DNA of 64,000 nucleotides, taken from positions 4,265-68,264 of the forward strand of contig CBDUNF010000001.1 of assembly GCA_965368515.1 (NCBI GenBank), written 5' to 3'. The translations under genes and the position numbers were made by a program. Numbering within the stretch: the first letter of the stretch is position 1; the number at the start of each line of letters is the position of its first letter. Shown here one piece after another: positions 7,724 to 63,172 of this stretch. Origin of the DNA: an uncultured bacterium (GTDB lineage Bacteria > Actinomycetota > Acidimicrobiia > Spongiisociales > UBA5794). The notes under the pieces are model-generated. The model did no database searches. It saw only the letters and a list, made by a program, of their open reading frames with translations, and had not been told where the DNA came from.

Positions 7724-8656
7724 ATGGCCCAAGTAGTCGTATCCGAATTCATGAACGAAGCAGCGGTAGAGCCGCTGCGCGAGAAGTTCACCGTTCTATT
7801 CGACCCGGGATTGGTCGATGACCGCAACCGCCTGTTGGCGGAGCTGAGTGAAGCCGAGGCGATCATCGTTCGCAATCGAACGCAAGTCGATGCTGGCTTG
7901 CTGGCTGCCGCTCCCCGGTTGCGAGCCGTCGGACGGCTTGGTGTTGGTCTCGACAACATCGATCTCCAAGCGTGTGCAGATCGCGGAGTTGTGGTCCACC
8001 CCGCGACCGGTGCCAACGCACTAGCGGTCGCCGAGTATGTAGTTGCCTCACTCCTTATGTTGTTCCGCGGTGCGTACCAGTCGAAGGATCGGATGCTCGA
8101 CGGATCCTGGCCCCGAGCCGACCTTCAAGGTCGGGAAACTGCGGGCAAGTCTCTGGCGCTCGTCGGGCTCGGTGAGATTGCGCGCCTCGTTGCCGTGCGT
8201 GCCTCCGCCCTCGGAATGAACGTTGCCGCCTTCGATCCGTTTATTGCCGATACCGACCCGGTCTGGGATGACATCGATCGCCGCGAGACTGTCGATGCGG
8301 TGCTCGCCGGCGCAGACGCGGTGAGCGTTCACGTTCCGCTCACCGACGAGACCCGACACATACTCAACGCGTCGAGTCTCGGTGTGCTGGCCCCGGGCGC
8401 GGTTGTCGTGAATACCGCTCGTGGGGGCATCGTTGACGATGCTGCCCTCGCAGCCGCGATTCGCGCCGGGAAGATCGCCGGCGCCGCGCTTGATGTGTTC
8501 GAGGTCGAGCCGTTGACCGCTGTGGCCGCAGAGCCGTTTGTTGGACTCGACAACGTCGTGCTGACCCCACACATCGCAGGCCTCACCGCAGAATCGAATT
8601 CGCGAGTTAGCGACGTGACCGTCGCCAATGTGTTAGCAACCCTGACGAGCAAGTAG
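7724..8656 (+). CDS. D-isomer-specific 2-hydroxyacid dehydrogenase (PGDH/GyaR-like)
   Basis: NAD-binding GLGEIAR-like motif and catalytic R/E/H arrangement (NTARGGIVDDAAL...DVFEVEP...TPHIAG). Confidence 0.8.
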   Translation: MAQVVVSEFMNEAAVEPLREKFTVLFDPGLVDDRNRLLAELSEAEAIIVRNRTQVDAGLLAAAPRLRAVGRLGVGLDNIDLQACADRGVVVHPATGANALAVAEYVVASLLMLFRGAYQSKDRMLDGSWPRADLQGRETAGKSLALVGLGEIARLVAVRASALGMNVAAFDPFIADTDPVWDDIDRRETVDAVLAGADAVSVHVPLTDETRHILNASSLGVLAPGAVVVNTARGGIVDDAALAAAIRAGKIAGAALDVFEVEPLTAVAAEPFVGLDNVVLTPHIAGLTAESNSRVSDVTVANVLATLTSK

Positions 8657-8665
8657 GAGAGATAG

Positions 8666-9328
8666 ATGAAGTTCTTCCTCGATAGTGCCATGACCGACGA
8701 GATCGAATATGCCCTCGAGATGTGGGACATCGACGGGGTCACCACCAACCCACGTCACGTTCAGGTTTCCGGCAAACCGTTCATGACCGTCATCGCCGAG
8801 ATCGCCAAGATCTTCGACGGGACCGACAAGCCGATCTCGGTCGAGGTCAATCCTCACTTCGATGATTGGACAGAGATGGTGACGGAAGGCAAGAAGCTCG
8901 CCGCCCTGTCTCCCAACTTCATCATCAAGCTTCCCGCCACCGAGCCCGGATACAAGGCCGTCCACGAACTGGCCAAGGACGGCATCCAGTCGAACCTGAC
9001 TCTCGTATTCTCGGCAGCCCAGGCACTCCAAGCGATGCGCATGGGTGCGGCGTTCGTATCCCCGTTTGTCGGCTGGAAGGAAAGCAACGGCGAAGAGATC
9101 ACTCACTTCATCGACGAGGTGGCCGCGATCCGCAACGTCTTCGGATACGACACGGAGATCATCGTTGCGGCCGCCCGCAACGCCAGGCAGATCACCAACT
9201 CTGCCGTCGTCGGTGCCGACATTGTTACCGCCGGCATGCCGGTGTTCAAGGACAGCTTCGCTCATCCCTACACGGACGTTGGACTCGGCAAGTTCCAGGC
9301 TTTCTGGGACGACACCCCGTACGAGTAG
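8666..9328 (+). CDS. fructose-6-phosphate aldolase / transaldolase family protein (Fsa/TalC-like)
   Basis: MKFFLDSA...GVTTNP N-terminal signature of the Fsa/TalC subfamily; 220 aa. Confidence 0.8.
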   Translation: MKFFLDSAMTDEIEYALEMWDIDGVTTNPRHVQVSGKPFMTVIAEIAKIFDGTDKPISVEVNPHFDDWTEMVTEGKKLAALSPNFIIKLPATEPGYKAVHELAKDGIQSNLTLVFSAAQALQAMRMGAAFVSPFVGWKESNGEEITHFIDEVAAIRNVFGYDTEIIVAAARNARQITNSAVVGADIVTAGMPVFKDSFAHPYTDVGLGKFQAFWDDTPYE

Positions 9329-51850: not shown

Positions 51851-52420
51851 ATGCCGACGGTTGAAGTCTTGTTCGATGGCTATGTGGGGGAGCGGGTCGC
51901 CGGCACGGTGAGCCTCGTGAGGTCGGGTGATGTCGTTGCGATCATCGATCCCGGCATGGTGCCCGATCGGTCGGCGATCCTCGATCCCCTACGGGGTCAG
52001 GGTGTCGAACCCGAGGATGTGACTGACGTGATCTTGTCCCATCACCACCCGGACCACACCATGAACATCGCACTGTTCCCCAACGCCATGGTGCACGATC
52101 ACTGGGCCACCTACCGCAACGACGAGTGGATCTCGCGTCCCGCTGAAGGGTTTGCGGTTGCTGGTGGCATCACCCTGTTGGAGACGCCGGGGCATACCCC
52201 GCAGGACGTCACGACGCTGGTCCACACCGCTGCCGGCACGTATGCCTTCACCCACCTGTGGTGGAACGGGTCGATCGACGGTGATCCCCGCGCAACGCTG
52301 CCTGAGCTGCTGCAGCCCAATCGGGACCGAGTGCTGGGAATTGCGGACATCATCGTTCCGGGCCATGGTTCGCCCTTCCCGGCGGCAAGCGCCCCACGGA
52401 TCGAACAGGAGGCCGAGTAA
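51851..52420 (+). CDS. MBL-fold metallo-hydrolase
   Basis: HHHPDH metal-binding motif (ILSHHHPDHTMN), downstream His/Asp ligands. Confidence 0.75.
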   Translation: MPTVEVLFDGYVGERVAGTVSLVRSGDVVAIIDPGMVPDRSAILDPLRGQGVEPEDVTDVILSHHHPDHTMNIALFPNAMVHDHWATYRNDEWISRPAEGFAVAGGITLLETPGHTPQDVTTLVHTAAGTYAFTHLWWNGSIDGDPRATLPELLQPNRDRVLGIADIIVPGHGSPFPAASAPRIEQEAE

Positions 52421-53121
52421 TGGCACAGCGGAACATCGTCGCAATGGGTGGTGGTGGCTTCAGCTCGGGGAACTCGATGCTCGATCGTTATGCGTTGTCA
52501 CTGGTCGACGCGCCACGGCCGAAGGTCTGCTTCATTCCCACGGCGAGTGGAGACGACGCCGGATACACCCTCGAGTTCTTCAAGGCCTACAGCAGTTACG
52601 GTTGCGATCCGTTTGTGCTCAATCTCTTTTCGCGCGAAGTAGAGGACATCCCTGAGTTTCTCCATGGCATGGACATGGTTTATGTGGGCGGTGGTAGTAC
52701 TGCGAACCTCCTTGCGGTCTGGAGGTTGCACGGTGTGGATACGGCGCTCGAAGAGGCCTGGTACGACGGTGTGGTCCTGAGCGGTCTGAGCGCCGGCGCA
52801 AACTGCTGGTTCGACGCCAGCACCACCGATTCGTACCTTCTCGGCAAGGCGGATGCCCTCACAGACGGAGTCGGGTTCCTTCCCGGCAGCTACTGCCCGC
52901 ATTACACCTCGGAACCGGAGCGCCGGCCCAATTACATGAATCTGGTTGCTACCGGAGTACTGCCCTCTGGCTACGCATGTGAGGACGGCACTGCAGTTCA
53001 TTTTGTCGGCACCGAGCTGAAGATAGCGGTGTCCGTCGACGGCGATGCCAGGGCGTTTCGGGTGGCGCGACTCGGCGAAGGTGCATCCGAGGAGCCCCTC
53101 GAGTTTGTGACGCCAAGCTGA
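52420..53121 (+). CDS. peptidase E (S51 family alpha-aspartyl dipeptidase-like)
   Basis: S51 blocks (CFIPTASGD, YVGGGSTANLL, GLSAGANCWF with Ser nucleophile). Confidence 0.75.
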   Translation: MAQRNIVAMGGGGFSSGNSMLDRYALSLVDAPRPKVCFIPTASGDDAGYTLEFFKAYSSYGCDPFVLNLFSREVEDIPEFLHGMDMVYVGGGSTANLLAVWRLHGVDTALEEAWYDGVVLSGLSAGANCWFDASTTDSYLLGKADALTDGVGFLPGSYCPHYTSEPERRPNYMNLVATGVLPSGYACEDGTAVHFVGTELKIAVSVDGDARAFRVARLGEGASEEPLEFVTPS

Positions 53122-53295
53122 CCAAATGGCCTCTCCTGGGGCCATCCAACTGCCCGGCAGACCCGCGGTTGGTTCGCCACGTTGCGTGGTCGGGCCACGG
53201 CGAGGCGCATAACCGCTTGTAATGAGGCGCCCAATCCCTCTAATTTGACTCATGAATGGCGCGCTCTGAAGGCGCCGTCAGAGGAGAGGGAAACA

Positions 53296-54309
53296 ATGAA
53301 ACGACTATTAATGGCCGTCGTCGCGCTCGCGATGCTGGCAGCGGCTTGCGGAGGTGACGACGAGAGCAGCTCTCTGCTCGATGATGTCATCGACCGCGGC
53401 AACATCATTTGTGGTGTCAATGAGACACTGCCCGGGTTCGGTGTTGTCGACGACGCCGGCAACCTGAGTGGCTTCGATATCGACTTCTGCAAAGTTGTCG
53501 CTGCGGGCGTGCTTGGTGACGCCAATGCCGTCGAGTACGTACCGCTCAACGCTGATGCACGCTTCACTGCGCTTCAGTCGGGCGAGATCGACCTACTGAT
53601 TCGCAACACCACCTGGACGGCAACCCGTGACGGGCAAGAGGGCGCAAACTTCTTGTTCACCACGTACTACGACGGGCAGGGCATCATGGTGCCGGCCGCG
53701 ACTGGTTTCACCACGCTCGAGGATCTGGCCGACGCCAACATCTGCGTGCTGTCGGGTACCACTACCGAGCTGAACCTCACCGCTGTGTTCAATGCGCGCG
53801 GCATCCCGTTCAACCCGGTCGTGTTCGGTGACAACACCCAGCTGCGGCCGGCTTACGAGTCCGGTCAGTGCGAGGCGTGGACTTCGGATGCGAGCCAGAT
53901 CGGTTCGTTCAAGTTCACCATCGAGAGTGAGGGCGGCGCCGAGCAGCACATCATGTCGGAGGTCTTCTCCAAGGAGCCACTCGGTCCGGTCGTTGCTGAT
54001 GGCGATACGCAGTGGGCCCAGGCTGTCGAATGGTCAGTGATGGCCACGGTGCAGGCGTGGGAGTTTGGTTTGGATTCGGGCAACATCGGAAGCTATTCCG
54101 GTTCCGACCCCAACATTCTCAACTTCCTTGGCGATGGTGACTTCAACCCGACTCTTGGCTTGCCAAGTGATTTTGCGGTTCAGGTTGTCTCCCAGGTTGG
54201 CAACTACGAGGAGATCTACAACAAGTTCCCGGAGCTTGCTCCCCTCGATGGAAGTGTCAACGATCTGTGGAGCAACGGCGGTCTGATGTACGTACCGCCT
54301 TACCGCTAG
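53296..54309 (+). CDS. amino acid ABC transporter substrate-binding protein (general L-amino-acid AapJ/BztA-like)
   Basis: Signal/lipobox LAMLAAACGGDDE; family-3 solute-binding blocks. Confidence 0.8.
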   Translation: MKRLLMAVVALAMLAAACGGDDESSSLLDDVIDRGNIICGVNETLPGFGVVDDAGNLSGFDIDFCKVVAAGVLGDANAVEYVPLNADARFTALQSGEIDLLIRNTTWTATRDGQEGANFLFTTYYDGQGIMVPAATGFTTLEDLADANICVLSGTTTELNLTAVFNARGIPFNPVVFGDNTQLRPAYESGQCEAWTSDASQIGSFKFTIESEGGAEQHIMSEVFSKEPLGPVVADGDTQWAQAVEWSVMATVQAWEFGLDSGNIGSYSGSDPNILNFLGDGDFNPTLGLPSDFAVQVVSQVGNYEEIYNKFPELAPLDGSVNDLWSNGGLMYVPPYR

Positions 54310-54337
54310 ATCAACCGAGCTTGACATATAAACGGTG

Positions 54338-54366
54338 GGTGGCCGGCACGTGGGGTGCCGGCCACC
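54338..54366 (+). terminator. 12-bp perfect-stem hairpin (attenuator/terminator) between the substrate-binding protein and permease genes
   Basis: GGTGGCCGGCAC-GTGGG-GTGCCGGCCACC. Confidence 0.4.
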
Positions 54367-54392
54367 TCCGACACCTGTAGGACAAGATTGCC

Positions 54393-55625
54393 TTGACACA
54401 GACCACCCTGGAGCCGCCTAACTCGGCGGACACGGGCCCCGAAGAACACATAGTCTGGTACCGCAACGTGCGGACCTTACGCATCGTGGCGCAAGTCACT
54501 GCGGTTGTGGCCGTTCTTGCTCTGATGTCGTGGTTCTTCAACAACCTGCTCACAAATCTGGATCGCCGCAATATCGGCACCGACTTTGGATTCCTTAGCC
54601 GGCCGACCAACTTCGAGATTCCCTACGACGAAGGCTTCAATCCACGTAGCCCCGTGACCGACATGATCCTGGTCGGTCTGAAGAACACCTTCCTGGCGGG
54701 CTTCTTCGGGATCATCATCGCAAGCATTGTTGGTCTGCTTGTTGGCATCTCCCGGCTATCGACTAACTGGCTGGTCGCCAAGTTGGCGATGATCTATGTC
54801 GAGACCTTCCGCAATATCCCGCCGCTGGTCATCATCGTGTTCTTTGGAGCAGCGATGTTCACAGCCGGGCCGTTCCCGGTCCTTCAGGAAGCCGACACTG
54901 TTTCGTTCTTCGGTACCGACAACAACTTCCTGATTCTGTCGAACGAACGCTTTGGCATCCCCTCCTTCATCGCCGGGGGCAACGTTGGGCTGTTCTGGAT
55001 CACAGTTATCGTCGCGCTGTTAGCGGCAATCGCCGTAGGCGTCTACCGCACCCGACTCAGTGACAGAACAGGTGTGCACCACCATCGGATCCGATGGGGC
55101 TTCGGCGCCTTTGTCGTGATCAGCTTGCTGGGGTTCTTGCTCATCGGTGACGCGTTCACGATGTCGTGGCCCGAGGTTTCGGAGAACGGCCGGCGGATCG
55201 TCGGTGGGTTCATCATGAACTCCGGCTTCATGTCGATCACCGTCGCTCTCGGCCTCTATACGGCGAGCCATATCGCGGAGATCATTCGCGGTTCGATCCT
55301 TGCGGTCCCCAGCGGTCAAACCGAGGCGGCTAATGCGATCGCCCTCACCGCGTTCCAACGGTACCGATACATCGTCCTTCCGCAGGCCCTCCGAATAGCA
55401 TTGCCGCCGACGATCAACCAGTACCTCAACCTCGTCAAGAACACTTCGCTCGGGACCGTGGTGGCTTATGCCGAGATCACGGCGCTGACCCGAAGCTCGA
55501 TCGGCAACGGTCGCCCGGCACCGCAATCCATTGCGATTCTGATGTTGGTCTATCTGACCTTCTCGCTTGGGATTTCCGCCGTTTTGAATATCTATAACCG
55601 GCGCATTCAACTGGTGGAGAGGTAG
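54393..55625 (+). CDS. amino acid ABC transporter permease (AapQ/BztB-like); TTG start uncertain
   Basis: His/Glu/Gln/Arg/opine family permease domain with EAA-like loop. Confidence 0.7.
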   Translation: MTQTTLEPPNSADTGPEEHIVWYRNVRTLRIVAQVTAVVAVLALMSWFFNNLLTNLDRRNIGTDFGFLSRPTNFEIPYDEGFNPRSPVTDMILVGLKNTFLAGFFGIIIASIVGLLVGISRLSTNWLVAKLAMIYVETFRNIPPLVIIVFFGAAMFTAGPFPVLQEADTVSFFGTDNNFLILSNERFGIPSFIAGGNVGLFWITVIVALLAAIAVGVYRTRLSDRTGVHHHRIRWGFGAFVVISLLGFLLIGDAFTMSWPEVSENGRRIVGGFIMNSGFMSITVALGLYTASHIAEIIRGSILAVPSGQTEAANAIALTAFQRYRYIVLPQALRIALPPTINQYLNLVKNTSLGTVVAYAEITALTRSSIGNGRPAPQSIAILMLVYLTFSLGISAVLNIYNRRIQLVER

Positions 55626-55628
55626 ATC

Positions 55629-57086
55629 ATGGATCCCGACCTTCCCTTCACTCCGCTCGAGACGGGCACTTTGGAGCCTATGCCTGTTGCTGAAACGCGA
55701 GAGCGTCAGCCGAAGCTGCCGCCAGGCAAGTGGATCCATAAGAACCTGTTCAACAACTGGTACAACTCGGCTATCACAGTGGTCCTCGGCGTCTCCGTCA
55801 TCGCTGCGACATACTTCTTGCTGAGATTCGTTTTCGTCACTGCTCGATGGGCGCCCGTCATCGAGAACCTGACGCTGTTCATGGTTGGTCGTTTCCCGCG
55901 TACCGCAGCCAACGATCAGCTATGGCGTGTGGTCGCCCAGGTACTTATCTGGTCGGGGGCAATGGGACTGGCTTGGGGCGCCGCAGTGTCGGGCGCGAAG
56001 TTCCGGGCAATGCAGGCCGGCGTCGAGTACACCGAAGACACGCTGCTGACCAGGCTCAGGCGGTATTGGAGCCTGATCGGGCTGATCGTGCTACTTCTCG
56101 TAATCGCCAAGACGTTTGGCCCGGCTCTAGTCGTGATCGCGGCCGTCGCGATTGGGGCGGCGCTGCAGATGGTCGGAGCTCGAATCCCGGGTCAGTACGC
56201 CGGAGTCACCTGGGCCGGCGTCGCCTTCCTCGGCGTCCTCGGCTATCAGATCGTTAGCGGGTTCGTTGGTACCGGCTGGCTGTGGCTCTTTCTCCCGATC
56301 GTGCTCGCATCCGTTTCCCTGCTGGGGAGGCGTGATTGGGACGACGTGCGTCGCATGCACATCGTCCAAAGCGCAGCTGCAGTTGCCATATTGGCGGTCG
56401 GCTTCCTCTTGTACTCGGTGACCAATTTCGAAGGCGTCGGGTGGGACGAGTGGGAAGGTTTCCATCTCAATCTCATAATGGCTGCCCTGGCGATCACGCT
56501 GTCATTCCCGCTCGGTCTTCTGCTGGCGCTGGCTCGCCGATCGAGTTTCCCCGCCCTGCGAACACTCGCCACGCTCTACATCGAGCTGATCCGTGGTGTG
56601 CCGTTGATTTCGCTGCTGTTGATGGCTCAGTTCTTCCTTGGCTTTTTCCTGAATACGACCACGCTTCCCTCTGAGATCACCAGGGCGCTAGCGGCCATGA
56701 CGATGTTCACGGCTGCCTATGTGGCCGAGATCGTTCGCGGTGGACTCCAGGCGGTTCCGGGGGGCCAGGTCGAAGCGGGCAACTCGCTTGGGCTCTCGCC
56801 TTGGAAGGTCACAAGGCTCATCGTCCTGCCCCAGGCCCTTCGCGCCGTTATCCCGGCAATGGTTGGCCAGTTCATCTCGCTGTTCAAGGACACGACGCTG
56901 CTGTTCATCATCGGTATCGGCGAGATCCTTCGGGTTCGTGAGATTGTCCATGCGCAGACGGATTTCCGGGGCTTCGGGATCACAGAGACACTGGTGTTCG
57001 TGATGCTTGCCTTCTGGGCAGTGTCGTTTGCTATGTCTAGGGAAAGCCAACGTTTGGAACGGAAGCTTGGAGTTGGAGAACGATGA
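55629..57086 (+). CDS. amino acid ABC transporter permease (AapM/BztC-like)
   Basis: Polar amino-acid permease C-terminal domain ([17 protein letters not shown]). Confidence 0.8.
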
Positions 57087-57880
57087 CAGACAGAAACGAC
57101 TCAGGATCTGGTGAGGTATTCGCCGACGCCACCCAGATGGCCGGTACCGGCGAGCTGATGATCGAACTCGTCGATGTCGACAAGTACTTCGGCGACTTCC
57201 AAGCTCTGAAAGACATCAATCTGAGAATCGCCAAGCAGGAGGTTGTCGTTGTCATCGGGCCTTCGGGTTCCGGCAAGTCGACGATGATCCGCTGCATCAA
57301 CCGGCTCGAGAAGCATGATCACGGCAGGATCACGGTTGATGGCATCGAGCTCTCCGATGACATCAGGCACATCCAGGAGATCCGTCGTGAGACGGGAATG
57401 GTGTTCCAGCAGTTCAACCTGTTCCCACATCTAACGGTGCTGGAGAACGTAACCCTCGGACCACGCCAGGTTCGCAACATGCCCAAGAAGGAAGCGGACG
57501 ACCTGGGGATGGAGCAGCTCACTGCGGTGCAGATCCCCGAGCAGGCGCACAAATACCCCGGCCAACTCTCAGGTGGGCAGCAGCAACGTGTGGCCATCGC
57601 CCGGTCCTTGGCGATGAGCCCGAAGGTGATGCTCTTTGATGAGCCGACGTCAGCATTGGACCCAGAGATGATCAAAGAGGTGCTCGACTCCATGAAGGAA
57701 CTGGCCCTTTCCGGAATGACGATGATCGTCGTCACTCACGAGATGGGGTTTGCCCGCGAGGTTGCGGATCGTGTCGTCTTCATGGCCGACGGGCAGATCG
57801 TCGAAGTTGGCACCCCCGAGCACTTCTTCACCAACCCGACAGAAGATCGCACCAAGCTCTTCCTCAGCCAGATCCTGTAG
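57083..57880 (+). CDS. amino acid ABC transporter ATP-binding protein
   Basis: Walker [23 protein letters not shown] signature, Walker [12 protein letters not shown]; ATGA overlap. Confidence 0.9.
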
Positions 57881-58025
57881 GCGCCACGTCTCACCCAATC
57901 CGGCTGAGACGGCCGATGCCATTTGCGCGCTCCCGCGTCCTCAACCAGGTTCACTCCGTGGCCTAGCTGCCGATATAGGCGTGAGGATCAGGAGGGGCCG
58001 CCGGCCCACAGATAGAAGAAGAGGG

Positions 58026-58812
58026 ATGCGCATGAATCGCATAGCGGAGTTGGCCGATGTGACTCCCGACGTTGGACATCCAGTCTGTCTGTACTCGTCG
58101 GGGACCATGCCGTTTACTGGGTAGGGATTTCAGATGCAACGGCGTTTCGGTGCAATGTCTACTTCATCCAGGATGGAGATGTGGGGATCGTTGTCGATCC
58201 GGGTAGCTCCGATCACTTCGAGAGCGTGAAGCACAACATCGGTGAACTAATGGATCCAGCCGCCGTGACGGGATGATTCTATGTCACCAGGACCCCGATG
58301 TCGCGGCGTCCATGGTGGATTGGCTCGAGCTCAATCCGACAATGAAGGTCTTCACCAGTCCGCGCACCCAGGTGCTGATTCCCCACTACGGAGTCTCCGA
58401 CTACGACTTCTACGACACGTCGGTGAACCCGCGTTACGAATTGCCTTCCGGTGAGCATCTCCAGTTCATTGAGGCTCCATTCCTCCATTTCCCCGGGGCG
58501 ATCACGACATACGACACTGCAGCGAAGTTCCTGCTGTCTGGAGACATCTTTGCGGCACTGGATCTCGATTGGACTCTGACGGTTGACGATTTCTCGTTGC
58601 ACATCGCAAAGATGGACCTATTCCACATGGACTACATGGCCTCGAACCTTGCGGCCCGCGGTTTCGTCAGGCGCTTGGATGGAATTGAGATCGAGGGAAT
58701 CCTGCCGCAGCACGGGTCGATCATCAAACAGGAGCATGTGCCGCTTGCTCTCGACTATCTCGAGAACCTGCAATGTGGGCTCGACATCATCTACGCCGAC
58801 ATGGTGGACTAA
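58026..58812 (+). pseudogene. MBL-fold (flavodiiron/ODP-like) protein gene disrupted by two frameshifts (frames change near 58060-58115 and at 58273-58276)
   Basis: RBS+ATG ORF 58026-58124; frame-2 segment encoding VYWVGISDATAFRCNVYFIQDGDVGIVVDPG...ELMDPAAVTG ends at TGA 58274-58276; third frame ORF 58273-58812 (MILCHQDPDV...FLHFPGAITTYD...LLSGDIFAA); the pieces align as one flavodiiron-type MBL domain. Confidence 0.4.
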
Positions 58813-59320
58813 TGACAACGTCTGCACCGTCGGACGGTGAAGTTGCCGCGCTGCGACAGAAGATTGCCCTGCTCGAACAGGGAATGGGACAGGCTGCTCG
58901 TATTAGGGAGCTCTGGGAGAAATCCGCCAGCGACCTGAAGGCGACGAAGTCCGAGCTCAGTCACTCGCTGCAGGAACTGGCGGAAGCCCACGACGAACTA
59001 ACCGAGAAGAGCGAAGCGCTGGAGCGCCTCAACGATCAACTGCGTGAGGAGCTGGCGTTCCGCGAGAAGGTGGAGGCCGAGCGATTGTTGTCGCAGAAGC
59101 TCGAATCGATCGGCCAGTTGGCTGCGGGCATAGCCCACGAAATCAACACGCCAATTCAGTACGTAAGCGACAACACGCACTTTTTGCGGTCGGCCTTTGC
59201 GTCGCTTCAGCAGCTTGTTGTCGCACTCGATCCCGAGAAGGACGTTGCTGAGGGAAGCGAACCAGCTCGGCTGGCGGCTGTGCTGGACGTGGCCGAATCT
59301 GAAGCCTTGCTTGAAATCGA
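58812..59320 (+). pseudogene. histidine kinase fragment: coiled-coil + HisKA H-box (LAAGIAHEINTP) without an ATPase domain; ORF reads without stop into rpsF
   Basis: HisKA phospho-acceptor motif present; no HATPase_c N/G1/G2 boxes anywhere downstream; the frame continues through Arg/Cys-rich non-protein-like sequence to the rpsF stop. Confidence 0.4.
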
Positions 59321-59486
59321 AGCTTCCCCTGTGGCCAGTCAGGGTCGATGTGGACGGGTGACCCCAGCCCAGTTACACTCACGCACCGCAAACGGGGCAT
59401 GTCGAACAGTTTCGCCATGCCGCTACCCCTGCTCCCGGAGAGTCCGGGGGCCTTCCGCACTGCGGATGTCCACAGGAGGTGAGATA

Positions 59487-59774
59487 TTGCGTTCCTATGA
59501 GTTGATGATGATTCATCGTCCCGAGCTGGCCGAGCCCGATGTTCGGACTCTCGTCGGCGAGGTAGAAGGTGTCATCGCAAGTTCCGGTTCCGTAGAGGAC
59601 ACCGATTTTTGGGGCAAGCGTCGTTTTGCCTATGAGATCGATCACTTGAACGAGGGCTTCTACTCCGTCGTTACATTCGAAGCGGGCACCGAGATGGTCG
59701 AAACCCTTGACCGCGCCCTCGGGCTTCATGATGCCGTTATCCGGCACAAGATCACCCGCTCCGCCGGCAAGTAG
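59487..59774 (+). CDS. rpsF: 30S ribosomal protein S6 (TTG start)
   Basis: LRSYELMMIHRPEL...FYSVVTFEAG...DAVIRHKI S6 signature; AGGAGGTGA RBS 4-5 nt upstream of TTG. Confidence 0.85.
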   Translation: MRSYELMMIHRPELAEPDVRTLVGEVEGVIASSGSVEDTDFWGKRRFAYEIDHLNEGFYSVVTFEAGTEMVETLDRALGLHDAVIRHKITRSAGK

Positions 59775-59836
59775 AAAACTTGTCACCCTCGCCCTGCACA
59801 CTATGAACGAGTGCGCAGAGAGAAGAGAGATACGTA

Positions 59837-60307
59837 ATGAGTAACAACAGCGTGACATTGATCGGCAACCTCGTTGATGATCCGGAGCTTCGATTCACCC
59901 CGTCCGGTGTAGCCATGGCCAAGGTTCGTTTTGCGGTGAGCCGACGCTATCAAGACCGCAACCAGGAATGGCAGGAGGAGACCAGCTTCTTCGGCGGTAC
60001 CTGCTGGCGCGATATGGCCGAGAACGTCGCCGAGTCCCTGCAAAAGGGGATGCGGGTCATCGTGACCGGCCGGCTCGAGCAGCGTTCCTGGGAGAACCAA
60101 GAGGGCGAGAAGCGCTCGATGATCGAGGTCAGGATCGACGACATCGGCCCTTCGGTCCGATGGGCAACCGCATCGGTCACCCGTACCCCGCGCAGCGGTG
60201 GCACTGGTGACTGGGCCGGCAAGCAGAGTGGTGGCGGTGGTGGAGGCTCGGTACCACCGGCCCCTGTCGCCCGCGACGACTACGGCCCAGACGAAGCCCC
60301 TTTCTAA
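59837..60307 (+). CDS. ssb: single-stranded DNA-binding protein
   Basis: OB-fold SSB N-terminus (VTLIGNLVDDPELRFTPSG), Gly-rich tail ending in an acidic DEAPF. Confidence 0.9.
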   Translation: MSNNSVTLIGNLVDDPELRFTPSGVAMAKVRFAVSRRYQDRNQEWQEETSFFGGTCWRDMAENVAESLQKGMRVIVTGRLEQRSWENQEGEKRSMIEVRIDDIGPSVRWATASVTRTPRSGGTGDWAGKQSGGGGGGSVPPAPVARDDYGPDEAPF

Positions 60308-61060: not shown

Positions 61061-62419
61061 ATGGCTTTGGGAATCGACGATCCCCGATCCGGTTCCCTGC
61101 GCGTTCCACCACACAGCGTCGAGGCCGAGGAGTCGGTCCTCGGCGCTGTTTTGTTGGACAGCGATGCTGCCAACGTTGCACTCGAGAAGCTTCACCCGGA
61201 CGATTTCTACCGACCCGCCCATCAAGCGATCTTTGATGGGGTACTTGCCCTGTTCAATAAGAACGAGCCCGTTGACGCTGTCACCGTTGCGGAGGAGCTA
61301 CGGCGTGCCGACATGCTGGAGAGGGTTGGCGGTCTCGGCTATCTCACGCAGCTCATCGAGGTGGTCCCGGCGACCTCCAACATCGAGCACTATGCGGCCA
61401 TCGTCGAAGAGCATGCGCTCCGGCGTCGGCTCATGAGAGTCGGCGGCGACATCGGCAAGCTGGCGACCGAAGTCGACCAACCAATTGCCGAGGTTGTCGA
61501 CAAGGCCGAGCAATCCGTTTACGCCGTGTCGGAGAAGCGTGTCGGCGAGGGGCTGGCCCTAATCGACCCGCTGTTGGGTCCTGCGATCGAGAGAGCGGAA
61601 GAGCTACACCGCCACGGTGCCGAGGTGACCGGTTTGTCAACGGGCCTGCGTGACTTGGATCGCAAGCTCGCCGGTCTGCACCCGGGCAACCTCATCATCG
61701 TTGCCGCTCGTCCCGGTATGGGGAAGTCGACGCTCGCCATCGGCATCGCACAGCATATTGCGGTTCAGGGCGATCCAGTTGCCATCTTCACGTTGGAGAT
61801 GGGTCGGGAAGAGATCGTCTCGAGGATGCTGTGTTCGCAGGGACGAATCGATTCACAACGGCTGCGTACCGGGCGTCTCACTGAGGGCGACTTCTCGAAA
61901 CTGTCCAACGCCGCCAACGTCCTATACAAGAAGCCGATCTACGTCGATGACTCCGCAGGATTGACCGTGACTGAGATCCGAGCCAAGTGCCGGCGTCTCA
62001 AGCGGCGGAGTGGTCTTGGTCTGGTAGTAGTTGACTACCTCCAGTTGATGCACGGCACCGCCGGCGAGAATCGCCAGCAGGAGATCGCCATCATCAGTCG
62101 CAGCCTCAAGAGCCTTGCCCGCGAGCTCGAGGTGCCGGTCATCGGTGTTTCCCAGCTCAATCGTTCTCTAGAACAACGTGAAGACAAGCGTCCCCGTCTT
62201 GGCGACCTACGGGAGTCCGGGGCCATCGAACAGGACGCTGACATCGTGCTGTTCATCTACCGCCACGAGTACTACCACCCCGAGGCGATCGAAACCAAAG
62301 GTATCGCCGAGGTCGCGATTGCTAAGCACAGACAGGGCTCAGTTGGTCGTGTCGACCTCACCTTCCTGCCCGAATTCACCCTCTTTTCCGACATGGGCCG
62401 CGACACCCCGGTTATTTAG
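61061..62419 (+). CDS. dnaB: replicative DNA helicase
   Basis: PHSVEAEESVLGAVLLD N-terminal domain; Walker A GMGKST; DnaB C-terminal RecA-like domain; 452 aa (no intein). Confidence 0.9.
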   Translation: MALGIDDPRSGSLRVPPHSVEAEESVLGAVLLDSDAANVALEKLHPDDFYRPAHQAIFDGVLALFNKNEPVDAVTVAEELRRADMLERVGGLGYLTQLIEVVPATSNIEHYAAIVEEHALRRRLMRVGGDIGKLATEVDQPIAEVVDKAEQSVYAVSEKRVGEGLALIDPLLGPAIERAEELHRHGAEVTGLSTGLRDLDRKLAGLHPGNLIIVAARPGMGKSTLAIGIAQHIAVQGDPVAIFTLEMGREEIVSRMLCSQGRIDSQRLRTGRLTEGDFSKLSNAANVLYKKPIYVDDSAGLTVTEIRAKCRRLKRRSGLGLVVVDYLQLMHGTAGENRQQEIAIISRSLKSLARELEVPVIGVSQLNRSLEQREDKRPRLGDLRESGAIEQDADIVLFIYRHEYYHPEAIETKGIAEVAIAKHRQGSVGRVDLTFLPEFTLFSDMGRDTPVI

Positions 62420-62431
62420 AGGTACGAACGC

Positions 62432-63172
62432 TTACTCGCCCCGTGGCGTTTTTGGTCGAAGCACGACAGCGTCGGCAGCTCCGCCGGCGCTGGTCAGCGA
62501 AGCCAGGATCGCATCGAACATCCGCATCCGGCCGGTCTCGACCTGACGCTCAGCGAGCTCGCGAGCTGCGTGGTGATTACCCTTGAGAAGGGCGTCGAGC
62601 AGGTCACGGTGCTCACCCGCATGCAGCGATATGTCATGGTCGATCTCGAAGCCCATCGACAGCAGACGCTGCATCTCGTCGAGGAGGCTGGCCAGGGAAG
62701 CAGCCAGGCGTTCACTTCCGGAGGCGCTCGCCAGGATCTCGTGAAAGCGGAGCACCTTCGCCACACTCTGCTCGTAGGTATCTTGGTCAGTGTCCTCCAC
62801 AAGCGTGCGCAGTTGTTGGAGCTGTTCGGGTGTCGCTCTGGTGGCTGCCAGTTCCGCGGCTGCCGGTTCGAGGATCTGACGGAGTTGGTAGATCTCCTGG
62901 ACATCGGCGAGGGTCACCTCGGTAACCCGGTATCCGTGTCTGGGCTGAACCTCGACAAACCCTTCGTGGATCAGCATGCCGAGTGCCCGCTTCACCGGTG
63001 TCTTGCTCATGTTGAGTCGTTCGGCGATGTCGCCCTCGATCACCCGCGTGCCGGGCGGCAGGATGCACCGCAGGATTTCATCACGAAGCACCTTATAGGC
63101 GGTTTCGGTAGCGCTGCGGCCCCTGGTGTCGGATTCTGATGTCTCCCCGAGAATTGCGCGATAGCTTGGCAT
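62432..63172 (-). CDS. GntR family transcriptional regulator (FadR/FCD subfamily)
   Basis: N-terminal winged HTH (IAERLNMSKTPVKRALGMLIHEGFV) plus all-helical FCD C-terminal domain. Confidence 0.8.
   Translation of the reverse strand: MPSYRAILGETSESDTRGRSATETAYKVLRDEILRCILPPGTRVIEGDIAERLNMSKTPVKRALGMLIHEGFVEVQPRHGYRVTEVTLADVQEIYQLRQILEPAAAELAATRATPEQLQQLRTLVEDTDQDTYEQSVAKVLRFHEILASASGSERLAASLASLLDEMQRLLSMGFEIDHDISLHAGEHRDLLDALLKGNHHAARELAERQVETGRMRMFDAILASLTSAGGAADAVVLRPKTPRGE

Follow-up and report, generated by a model that had tools for sequence, protein, structure and literature searches.

Directly upstream of rpsF, in an uncultured Acidimicrobiia bacterium, three pieces of an ODP gene and a fragment of a histidine kinase gene follow one another on the + strand of the 64,000-nt stretch of DNA analysed here (the window). 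The locus raises the question of whether these pieces reflect sequencing errors, unusual small proteins or the remains of a signalling pair. The initial annotation had described the ODP pieces, the kinase fragment and an open frame running into rpsF, and all of them are present. We conclude that the locus is an ordinary pseudogene, neither a sequencing error nor a novel type of protein, and we give a probability of about 0.9 to the reading that it is a recently inactivated two-gene sensor module (odp plus histidine kinase), now a fixed pseudogene in a natural population.

The ODP region spans positions 58026-58812 and its pieces sit in three different frames, separated by two frameshifts:

58026..58124, + strand: psi-odp piece 1, the N-terminal 23-26 codons in the original frame, then out of frame to a TAG
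58095..58104, + strand: frameshift 1, a 1-nt deletion inside TCGTCGGGGA, with the GGGG run at 58100-58103
58097..58276 (start approximate), + strand: psi-odp piece 2, (G)DHAVYWVGISD...ELMDPAAVTG, ending at the TGA 58274-58276
58270..58276, + strand: frameshift 2, loss of 1 nt between GGG (58270-58272) and ATG (58273-58275)
58273..58812, + strand: psi-odp piece 3, MILCHQDPDV...IIYADMVD, covering the 179 C-terminal codons and retaining an intact di-iron motif region

Alignments showed that piece 1 (MRMNRIAELADVTPDVGHPVCLY) matches the N-termini of intact 260-aa homologues. At least two frameshifts had been proposed, and DNA alignment with five intact homologues revealed two. The first is a single-base gap relative to these homologues and is common to contig L001 and every population contig covering the site. 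At the second, the homologues read GGN ATG ATC/ATT CTG TGC CAC CAG and the window is without the third base of the glycine codon. What had been taken for a 2-nt slip is here a single-nucleotide deletion between 58272 and 58273, and the apparent ATGA stop/start overlap is a consequence of it. Once joined, the pieces make up one MBL domain, as first suspected: the repaired translation of 262 aa matches the ODP family (PF19583) over its full length (positions 1-194 of 194, E 6.4e-59, 199.5 bits for a gathering cut-off of 27.2). Piece 3 by itself covers PF19583 positions 44-194 (E 8e-46), shares 91% identity with the C-terminal part of the ODP on contig L088 (SRR26081748), and is reported by public gene callers as a 179-aa protein.

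Many intact proteins of 260 aa share about 80% identity with the repaired ODP. Residues 20-256 of the repaired ODP align with almost the full length of the solved structures 6QRQ (E 1.4e-41) and 6QNM (E 4.1e-34), the HQDPDV motif being identical in both alignments. The original label, flavodiiron/ODP-type, holds for its ODP part; the protein lacks a flavodoxin domain and so does not belong to the flavodiiron proteins. Indeed, no match to such a domain was found in Pfam or NCBIfam, the homologues stop at 260 aa, and the NCBIfam NorV models scored 31-38 bits against cut-offs of 635-711. The reading frame is interrupted by two 1-nt deletions in the window and by three in most population contigs. 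We assign the window copy to the ODP family as a pseudogene member, whose intact orthologues would be predicted to bind a di-iron centre and O2.

The kinase fragment, hereafter HK', starts within a TAATG stop/start overlap with odp (58810-58814):

58812..59321, + strand: HK', residues 1-170 of a kinase: coiled coil, H-box helix and a portion of the DHp insert

Nine full-length kinases (356-370 aa) align with HK' over their residues 1-170. With P0121, the kinase of L088, HK' shares 72% identity over 170 residues (75% in the BLASTP local alignment). The H-box LAAGIAHEINTP is present, its histidine codon lying at 59136-59138, and the HisKA match extends over profile positions 3-29 of 66 with an E of 0.0018, under the gathering score; the intact orthologues fall short of that score too. 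Homology to kinases ends at ...EALLEIE (residue 170), before a conserved AEDVPxAIAETLEGIxQVAxIVxSMKEF helix, and the DHp helical hairpin is left incomplete, with helix 2 missing. A Pfam profile search detected no HATPase_c in the kinase ORF of the window; P0121 carries this domain at residues 247-359. The fragment had been described as a coiled coil plus H-box with no ATPase domain, which agrees with our finding that it is residues 1-170 of a 360-370-aa kinase, HATPase_c being absent.

In L088, the in-frame 3' end of odp, the intact kinase P0121, the rpsF promoter and rpsF are found consecutively. An orthologous locus with a full kinase thus exists 5' of rpsF in a relative; its contig shows the last 112 ODP codons only, from which we infer a fully intact odp at that position. 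The following features lie between HK' and the end of rpsF:

59322..59333, + strand: deletion junction, placed by pairwise alignment with L088
59351..59379, + strand: putative rpsF promoter, with -35 TGGACG at 59351-59356, a 17-nt spacer and -10 TACACT at 59374-59379
59424..59486, + strand: structured 5' leader of rpsF, conserved and non-coding though inside the open frame
59487..59774, + strand: rpsF (ribosomal protein S6), intact, with a TTG start (PF01250, E 4.5e-24)

Relative to L088, the window lacks about 0.67 kb: the kinase from codon 171 to codon 370, its stop codon and roughly 70 bp of spacer. The deletion ends about 20 bp 5' of the rpsF -35 element, and homology to the rpsF-upstream region of relatives restarts at GGCCAG (59333-59338). 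The frame is open from 58773/58812 through the rpsF stop at 59774, as had been noticed, because the kinase stop codon is deleted and no stop happens to fall in the remaining 165 nt. The kinase fragment thus runs in frame into rpsF only as a by-product of the deletion.

Among the closest species representatives, the 11 whose sequence covers rpsF have an S6 with 81-89% identity to that of the window, the order rpsF-ssb-rpsR-rplI is conserved, and the TTG start and ribosome-binding site, with the Shine-Dalgarno AGGAGG at 59474-59479, are the same in 13 relatives. The block CGATGTGGAC...GTTACACTC is likewise conserved 5' of rpsF in 13 relatives, and it is solely from conservation that positions 59351-59379 are designated as the probable promoter. 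A sigma-70 consensus scan of 57800-59900 left this promoter unflagged since its 8/12 matching positions fall below the scan threshold; a consensus scan of the same interval found no terminator between the amino-acid ABC operon and rpsF. In the consensus fold of the leader (14 sequences), a CCCCU pairs with the Shine-Dalgarno AGGAGG, one hairpin is invariant, and a third helix has three pairs with compensatory changes. Searching Rfam gave no matches for the whole window at gathering thresholds and chance-level ones only for the leader region at E<=10 (sX12, E 1.3; sR51, E 7.9).

The proposal that the locus holds the remains of an ODP sensor/histidine kinase pair is well supported by relatives. 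An intact 260-aa ODP of about 80% identity followed by a kinase of 356-370 aa is present in L003, L004, L005, L086, L087 and L090. A metagenome contig search with the repaired ODP returned 19 loci, adding the intact pairs L089 and L090, and no further rpsF-adjacent ODP copy was seen among these 19. A 207-aa ODP (P0016, locus L002) was considered as a second decayed copy and is treated as an assembly artefact because its long-read contig has many split genes. In the window, the broken pair belongs to a larger insertion-like difference from relatives:

53122..59332, + strand: 6.2-kb block specific to this lineage, with the peptidase S51 gene on its left and the rpsF promoter on its right

This block contains the ABC operon (53182/53296-57880), psi-odp and HK'. 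In six relatives (L006, L007, L010, L014, L015, L021), the peptidase S51 gene lies 0.2-0.45 kb 5' of rpsF, and the remaining closest species representatives have different DNA between the two genes or show no peptidase S51 gene in the visible locus. A genome contig search with DnaB as a query yielded 80 loci, about 60 of them from Acidimicrobiia; none of these roughly 60 has an ODP 5' of rpsF, this kinase adjacent to it or this ABC operon there. At the left edge of the block, comparison of the spacer 53122-53295 with the spacers of relatives showed no homology past the 3' end of peptidase S51. The GC content of the block (0.56-0.62) is slightly below that of its flanks (0.60-0.63) and gives no clear signal of foreign origin.

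The gene pair in relatives, together with the kinase and odp 3' end at the rpsF position of L088, points to the following scenario. The ancestor would have carried, immediately 5' of the rpsF promoter, an odp for a 260-aa MBL-fold di-iron protein whose stop/start overlap coupled its translation to that of a soluble histidine kinase of 360-370 aa. The N-terminal coiled coil would have been the sole element of this kinase before DHp and ATPase, leaving it with no sensor domain of its own. By analogy with the ODP of Treponema denticola, the di-iron centre of the ancestral ODP may have been the site where O2 (or Fe(II) or NO) was sensed, and this ODP may have modulated the kinase through direct contact. 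In the window lineage, the two 1-nt deletions split odp into three frames and the loss of about 0.67 kb removed the kinase from codon 171 to its stop together with the spacer, rpsF keeping its promoter, its TTG start and the leader that sequesters its Shine-Dalgarno sequence. Judged from sequence, the remnants would have no function of their own and would at most be co-transcribed with the upstream ABC operon, though a residual role may persist, since piece 3 has its own ATG and HK' retains its start, coiled coil and H-box.

How old is this decay? The sequences indicate that it is recent. The dN/dS relative to L088 is 0.036 for the ODP and 0.15 for HK', values for which, under recent decay, a gene dead for a short time and one still constrained give the same signal. 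The repaired ODP carries no excess of damaging substitutions, with one unique change at near-invariant columns where nearly all intact homologues (n=54) have 0-3 and one has 7. Polymorphism amounts to 14 segregating sites per kb in psi-odp against 2 per kb in rpsF-dnaB. Uneven coverage among contigs and a contig end that diverges within the ABC operon confound these densities, which lend weak support to relaxed constraint.

The dN/dS of HK', its polymorphism below that of psi-odp, and its intact start codon, coiled coil and H-box would all fit a genuine small phosphotransfer or anti-kinase module forming heterodimers with other kinases, an alternative raised from the start for the HisKA-only product. 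We consider this very unlikely. The low dN/dS is explained by the recency of the truncation, and, at outgroup-conserved sites, 7 changes are specific to the window and 3 to L088. HK' stops short of DHp helix 2 and so cannot build the four-helix bundle bearing the phospho-acceptor, and the C-terminus of such a module would be made of translated rpsF promoter and leader, then S6. Moreover, nearly all of the best 120 HK' homologues listed are 300-390 aa long with HATPase_c; no conserved truncated family appears among them, and the truncated form is known from this single population only.

It is likewise most doubtful that the HK' ORF is translated at all, either as a dominant-negative coiled-coil/H-box peptide titrating kinases or as an extended S6 within ribosomes; if this were true, the deletion would have made a new gene product and not a dead remnant. 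A functional HK'-S6 fusion, in which S6 would bear a 225-residue N-terminal extension, has in its favour the frame open from 58812 to 59774 and the 320-aa 'Ribosomal_S6' called in at least seven assemblies. We find it barely credible, as rpsF has its own promoter, structured leader, ribosome-binding site and TTG as in relatives with a normal 95-aa S6, and the 165 nt in between show conservation of RNA and promoter sequence, not of protein. No selection is needed for the open stretch, since the estimated chance of 55 in-frame codons without a stop is about 5% at this GC content.

The frameshifts and the truncation could in principle be sequencing or assembly errors hiding an intact ODP-kinase pair, as had also been envisaged. 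Homopolymer runs are indel-error sites of some sequencing platforms, and both frameshifts lie in or next to G runs. However, the same two 1-nt gaps were found in 14 separately assembled contigs from different samples. Twelve of these come from ENA assemblies, whose SPAdes-style contig names point to short reads, and two from Logan assemblies of sequencing runs. Accession numbers of most of the confirming assemblies lie close together (ERZ250434xx), so that these may come from one study or site, perhaps from a single population. Every contig that reaches the junction shares it, with an identical sequence in 10/10 (L001, L109/L115 counted once, L110-L114, L116, L117 and L119). These contigs are separate consensus sequences because they differ by SNPs and by a third indel: 58163delT with 58165C>A, present in 8 of the 12 contigs covering 58163, is a third frameshift inside piece 2 that leads to FRCNVY-TAA. 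Over the 11.7 kb shared with L001, the sole indel falls within psi-odp; the remainder of the 64-kb window shows dense long ORFs and no other broken genes, and an absence of 0.67 kb is impossible as a base-calling error. Sequencing error is excluded, and this alternative rejected with next to no probability left to it, since 14 separate contigs share the frameshifts, and the junction where they reach it.

Finally, an ODP still produced by two programmed ribosomal frameshifts or from separately translated pieces that assemble is highly implausible, for although the ATG of piece 3 overlaps the stop of piece 2 (ATGA) in a way that resembles translational coupling and the conserved metal-site motifs are unchanged, it would require two separate +1 events, the breaks lie within the MBL beta-sandwich core, all homologues are single 260-aa chains, and the additional frameshift and TAA in piece 2 of 8/12 contigs would be intolerable for a functional gene.

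As a clear case of recent gene loss, the inactivated sensor module has little general biological import. It does draw attention to the regular pairing, in Acidimicrobiia, of ODP-type di-iron sensors with a sensor-less soluble histidine kinase, a pairing of which, to our knowledge, there is no characterisation; intact orthologues such as P0121 or the L003 pair are the ones worth studying. The locus has also left annotation artefacts in public assemblies, where a 179-aa 'ODP' and a 'ribosomal protein S6' of 320 aa are listed. Within one population, the third frameshift, which is segregating, offers a small natural case of stepwise pseudogene decay.

Among known systems, flavodiiron proteins and flavorubredoxin (FprA, NorV) share a homologous MBL-type di-iron core, and their PDB structures match with E 1e-8 to 1e-4, whereas the ODP homologues have only 260 aa, with neither flavodoxin nor rubredoxin domain. 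JGI names these ODP homologues 'flavorubredoxin'. The ODPs of T. denticola (TDE2498) and Thermotoga maritima (PF19583; 6QNM/6R9N and 6QRQ/6QWO) are alike in being stand-alone MBL-fold proteins of about 255-260 aa, with HQDPDV identical and the FLH, SGD and PQHG motifs conserved. The ODP of T. denticola is an O2 sensor in chemotaxis, genetically coupled to an MCP homologue (PMC7666581). The gene likewise stands beside a signalling partner, and in L003, L086 and L087 odp lies 3' of a che operon and an HD-GYP-type gene, reminiscent of the partners of published ODPs; unlike in T. denticola, the partner is a soluble histidine kinase and not an MCP, and the window copy has two frameshifts.

H-NOX and HnoK form an operon of a stand-alone gas sensor and a sensor-less histidine kinase. 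The ancestral module resembles them in the translational coupling of a gene for a small sensor that binds a cofactor to one for a cytoplasmic kinase without an input domain, and differs in its di-iron MBL fold, in place of a haem H-NOX, and in an ODP-kinase interaction deduced from gene adjacency only. As for its present state, the locus is like ordinary bacterial pseudogenes in its single-base deletions at short G runs, its 3'-end deletion, its segregating disabling mutations and its fragments called as small proteins by gene callers. The sole curiosity is that the deletion halts just before the promoter of an essential gene, leaving a stop-free frame into that gene.

The ODP (oxygen-binding di-iron protein) gene psi-odp (58026-58812) and the truncated histidine kinase ORF HK', which starts at 58812, lie upstream of rpsF, the ribosomal protein S6 gene, and comprise the following features, all on the plus strand.

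58026 to 58124, +: psi-odp piece 1, from ATG to stop, frame reading MRMNRIAELADVTPDVGHPVCLY...
58095-58104, +: frameshift 1, a 1-nt gap inside TCGTCGGGGA in the DNA alignment
Ending with TGA 58274-58276, +: psi-odp piece 2, second frame, ...GDHAVYWVGISDATAFRCNVYFIQDGDVGIVVDPG...ELMDPAAVTG
Between GGG 58270-58272 and ATG 58273, +: frameshift 2, a 1-nt gap in the DNA alignment
ATG 58273 to TAA 58810-58812, +: psi-odp piece 3, third frame, MILCHQDPDV...IIYADMVD
From 58812, homology to 59321, +: HK', with N-terminal coiled coil, H-box helix and part of the DHp-domain insert
Within 59322-59333, +: deletion junction, ~20 bp upstream of the rpsF -35 element
59424-59486, +: rpsF 5' leader, conserved in 13 relatives

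The initial annotation had described three ORF pieces in three frames forming one flavodiiron/ODP-type MBL domain. The pieces are present, and once joined they yield a 262-aa protein covering positions 1-194 of 194 of the Pfam ODP family PF19583 (E 6.4e-59). Among oxygen-binding di-iron proteins of known structure, 6QRQ/6QWO (E 1.4e-41) and 6QNM/6R9N (E 4.1e-34) align to the repaired protein over nearly their full length, and the HQDPDV motif is identical. Flavodiiron proteins align over the MBL core alone (E 1e-8 or weaker) and the repaired protein contains no flavodoxin domain; this makes the gene an ODP and rules out the flavodiiron part of the assignment. A protein search retrieved 815 ODP homologues, the top ones being intact, 260 aa long and 75-80% identical. 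DNA alignment with five intact homologues revealed two gaps in the window odp and no more, each of one base, the second placed such that the ATGA junction reads as the scar of a 1-nt deletion and not as the 2-nt slip first proposed. A 207-aa ODP on a long-read-style contig (L002, ERZ25039549 contig_55199) was considered as a second decayed copy and is probably an assembly artefact, given the many split genes of that contig (CheA, CheY and CheR are in pieces).

The start ATG of HK' overlaps the ODP stop codon (TAATG), and the spacing in intact relatives is similar, with a one-base overlap or a few bases between the genes. The HK' product aligns to residues 1-170 of nine full-length kinases (356-370 aa), in agreement with the coiled coil and H-box without ATPase domain reported initially. 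Its H-box helix is LAAGIAHEINTP (His codon 59136-59138), and kinase homology ends at ...EALLEIE (59321), directly before the conserved helix AEDVPxAIAETLEGIxQVAxIVxSMKEF. HATPase_c, residues 247-359 of the closest orthologue P0121, also lies beyond this end. The retained H-box could suggest a functional HisKA-only protein; however, both this helix and HATPase_c are missing, and no HisKA-only family is apparent among the best 120 kinase homologues listed, nearly all of which are 300-390 aa with HATPase_c.

The ancestral arrangement was sought in relatives. The window DnaB shares 96% identity with its counterpart in MAG Vin_3, and the remaining close relatives are MAGs from Acidimicrobiia. The distance from the peptidase S51 gene (window 52420-53121) down to rpsF is 0.2-0.45 kb in several of the closest species representatives (L006, L007, L010, L014, L015, L021), while the others have different DNA between the two genes or lack the peptidase gene in the visible locus. 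None of ~60 Acidimicrobiia loci has an ODP gene upstream of rpsF, this kinase next to rpsF or the amino-acid ABC operon at that place; window 53122-59332 is therefore a lineage-specific 6.2-kb block. A short contig of a closer relative (L088, 1,843 bp) is decisive for the ancestral order: it carries an in-frame ODP C-terminus (91% identity to the window), the full-length 370-aa kinase P0121, a 190-bp spacer and rpsF (95% identical). By alignment, ~0.67 kb is absent from the window, namely kinase codons 171-370, the stop codon and ~70 bp of spacer. Homology to the relatives' region upstream of rpsF restarts at GGCCAG (59333-59338), and this restart, together with the end of kinase homology, therefore places the junction. 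In three relatives (L021 10001-12634, L023 10001-12634, L026 3852-5705), DnaB stops after residue 386 and picks up again 0.5-1.3 kb later, as if split by an intein insertion; the window DnaB (61061-62419) is uninterrupted.

The HK' frame runs on into rpsF, and an HK'-S6 fusion could be imagined. Upstream of rpsF, a conserved block CGATGTGGAC...GTTACACTC, shared with relatives, can be read as a promoter (-35 TGGACG 59351-59356; -10 TACACT 59374-59379). In the consensus fold of the leader, CCCCU (59426-59430) pairs with the Shine-Dalgarno AGGAGG (59474-59479), the invariant hairpin GCUCCCGG/CCGGGGGC is retained, and a third helix shows compensatory changes and a variable insert. The leader matched no Rfam family and may be of the S6:S18 autoregulatory type. 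The TTG start (59487) and the S6 domain (PF01250, E 4.5e-24) of rpsF are normal, and the linking stretch is thus promoter and leader RNA, non-coding, which speaks against a fusion. We estimate a ~5% chance of an in-frame, stop-free 55-codon stretch at this GC content, so the open frame requires no special explanation. The structured leader (window 59424-59489) was also seen in L006-L015, L021, L023, L026 and L088. Gene callers annotate the read-through (58812-59774) as a 320-aa 'Ribosomal_S6' in public assemblies L108-L114, and many public assemblies list the psi-odp fragment as an ODP protein of 179 aa; both calls are annotation artefacts.

An exact-sequence look-up found the 320-aa ORF or the 179-aa piece in 14 separately assembled contigs (two from Logan assemblies of sequencing runs, the other 12 from ENA assemblies at 3-5x coverage whose contigs are named in SPAdes style), most of the confirming assemblies having neighbouring accession numbers and possibly representing one site or population. 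Scattered SNPs separate these contigs from the window. In 8 of the 12 contigs covering 58163, 58163delT with 58165C>A, absent from the window, creates a third frameshift plus a TAA stop within piece 2, against programmed frameshifting or a split ODP as an explanation of the three frames. The same deletion is the single indel in 11.7 kb common to the window and the near-identical population contig L001. Both 1-nt gaps occur in every contig covering them and the same junction wherever a contig reaches it, so sequencing error, the alternative raised initially, is excluded; the remainder of the 64-kb window has long, densely packed ORFs. L001 is otherwise 99.75% identical, with ~1 SNP per kb outside 62558-62744 (GntR-family gene, minus strand), where 12 SNPs in 190 bp look like a short recombination tract. 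One population contig has 18 consecutive differing positions at 54313-54330, as would be expected of an 18-bp indel in the spacer that separates the SBP gene from the first permease gene.

Compared with L088, S6 has a dN/dS of 0.04, the ODP C-terminus one of 0.036 and the kinase N-terminus one of 0.15; dS of the two sensor genes is 1.1-1.5, near saturation. The repaired ODP has one unique change at near-invariant columns, and nearly all of 54 intact homologues have 0-3 (one has 7). At outgroup-conserved sites HK' shows 7 window-specific vs 3 L088-specific changes, which is not significant. The low dN/dS and the lack of excess damaging changes point to an inactivation recent relative to the L088 split. 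Segregating sites number 14 per kb in psi-odp vs 2 per kb in rpsF-dnaB, a comparison confounded by unequal coverage.

Taken together, two homopolymer-associated 1-nt deletions broke odp and a 0.67-kb deletion truncated the kinase, leaving the downstream essential gene intact. The best reading is that the remnants have no function. They form an ordinary pseudogene pair of known families that arose recently; we give the HisKA-only, frameshifting or split-ODP, and fusion readings less than one chance in ten together. Intact pairs in relatives and the full kinase of L088 support the initial idea of a decayed sensor-kinase pair. The only points of mild novelty are that ODP and kinase genes are regularly paired in Acidimicrobiia and that this decay gives rise to annotation artefacts.

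By analogy with the Treponema denticola ODP, the ancestral ODP may have been a sensor of O2, Fe(II) or NO, acting through its di-iron site, and may have regulated the sensor-less kinase through direct contact. Consistent with such a role, the intact pair follows a che operon and an HD-GYP-type gene in L003, L086 and L087 and adjoins cytochrome oxidase genes in L005. In the latter (8001-9290; MAG Vin_3, JAAETI010000243.1), odp lies after these genes and before SCO1 and AhpC genes, and is called as a 429-aa protein with an N-terminal extension resembling a lipoprotein and a cytochrome c (CVTCH motif); the fusion may be real or the start mis-called. In T. denticola, ODP serves chemotaxis as an O2 sensor and has a genetic coupling to an MCP homologue (PMC7666581), whereas the partner in Acidimicrobiia is a sensor-less kinase.
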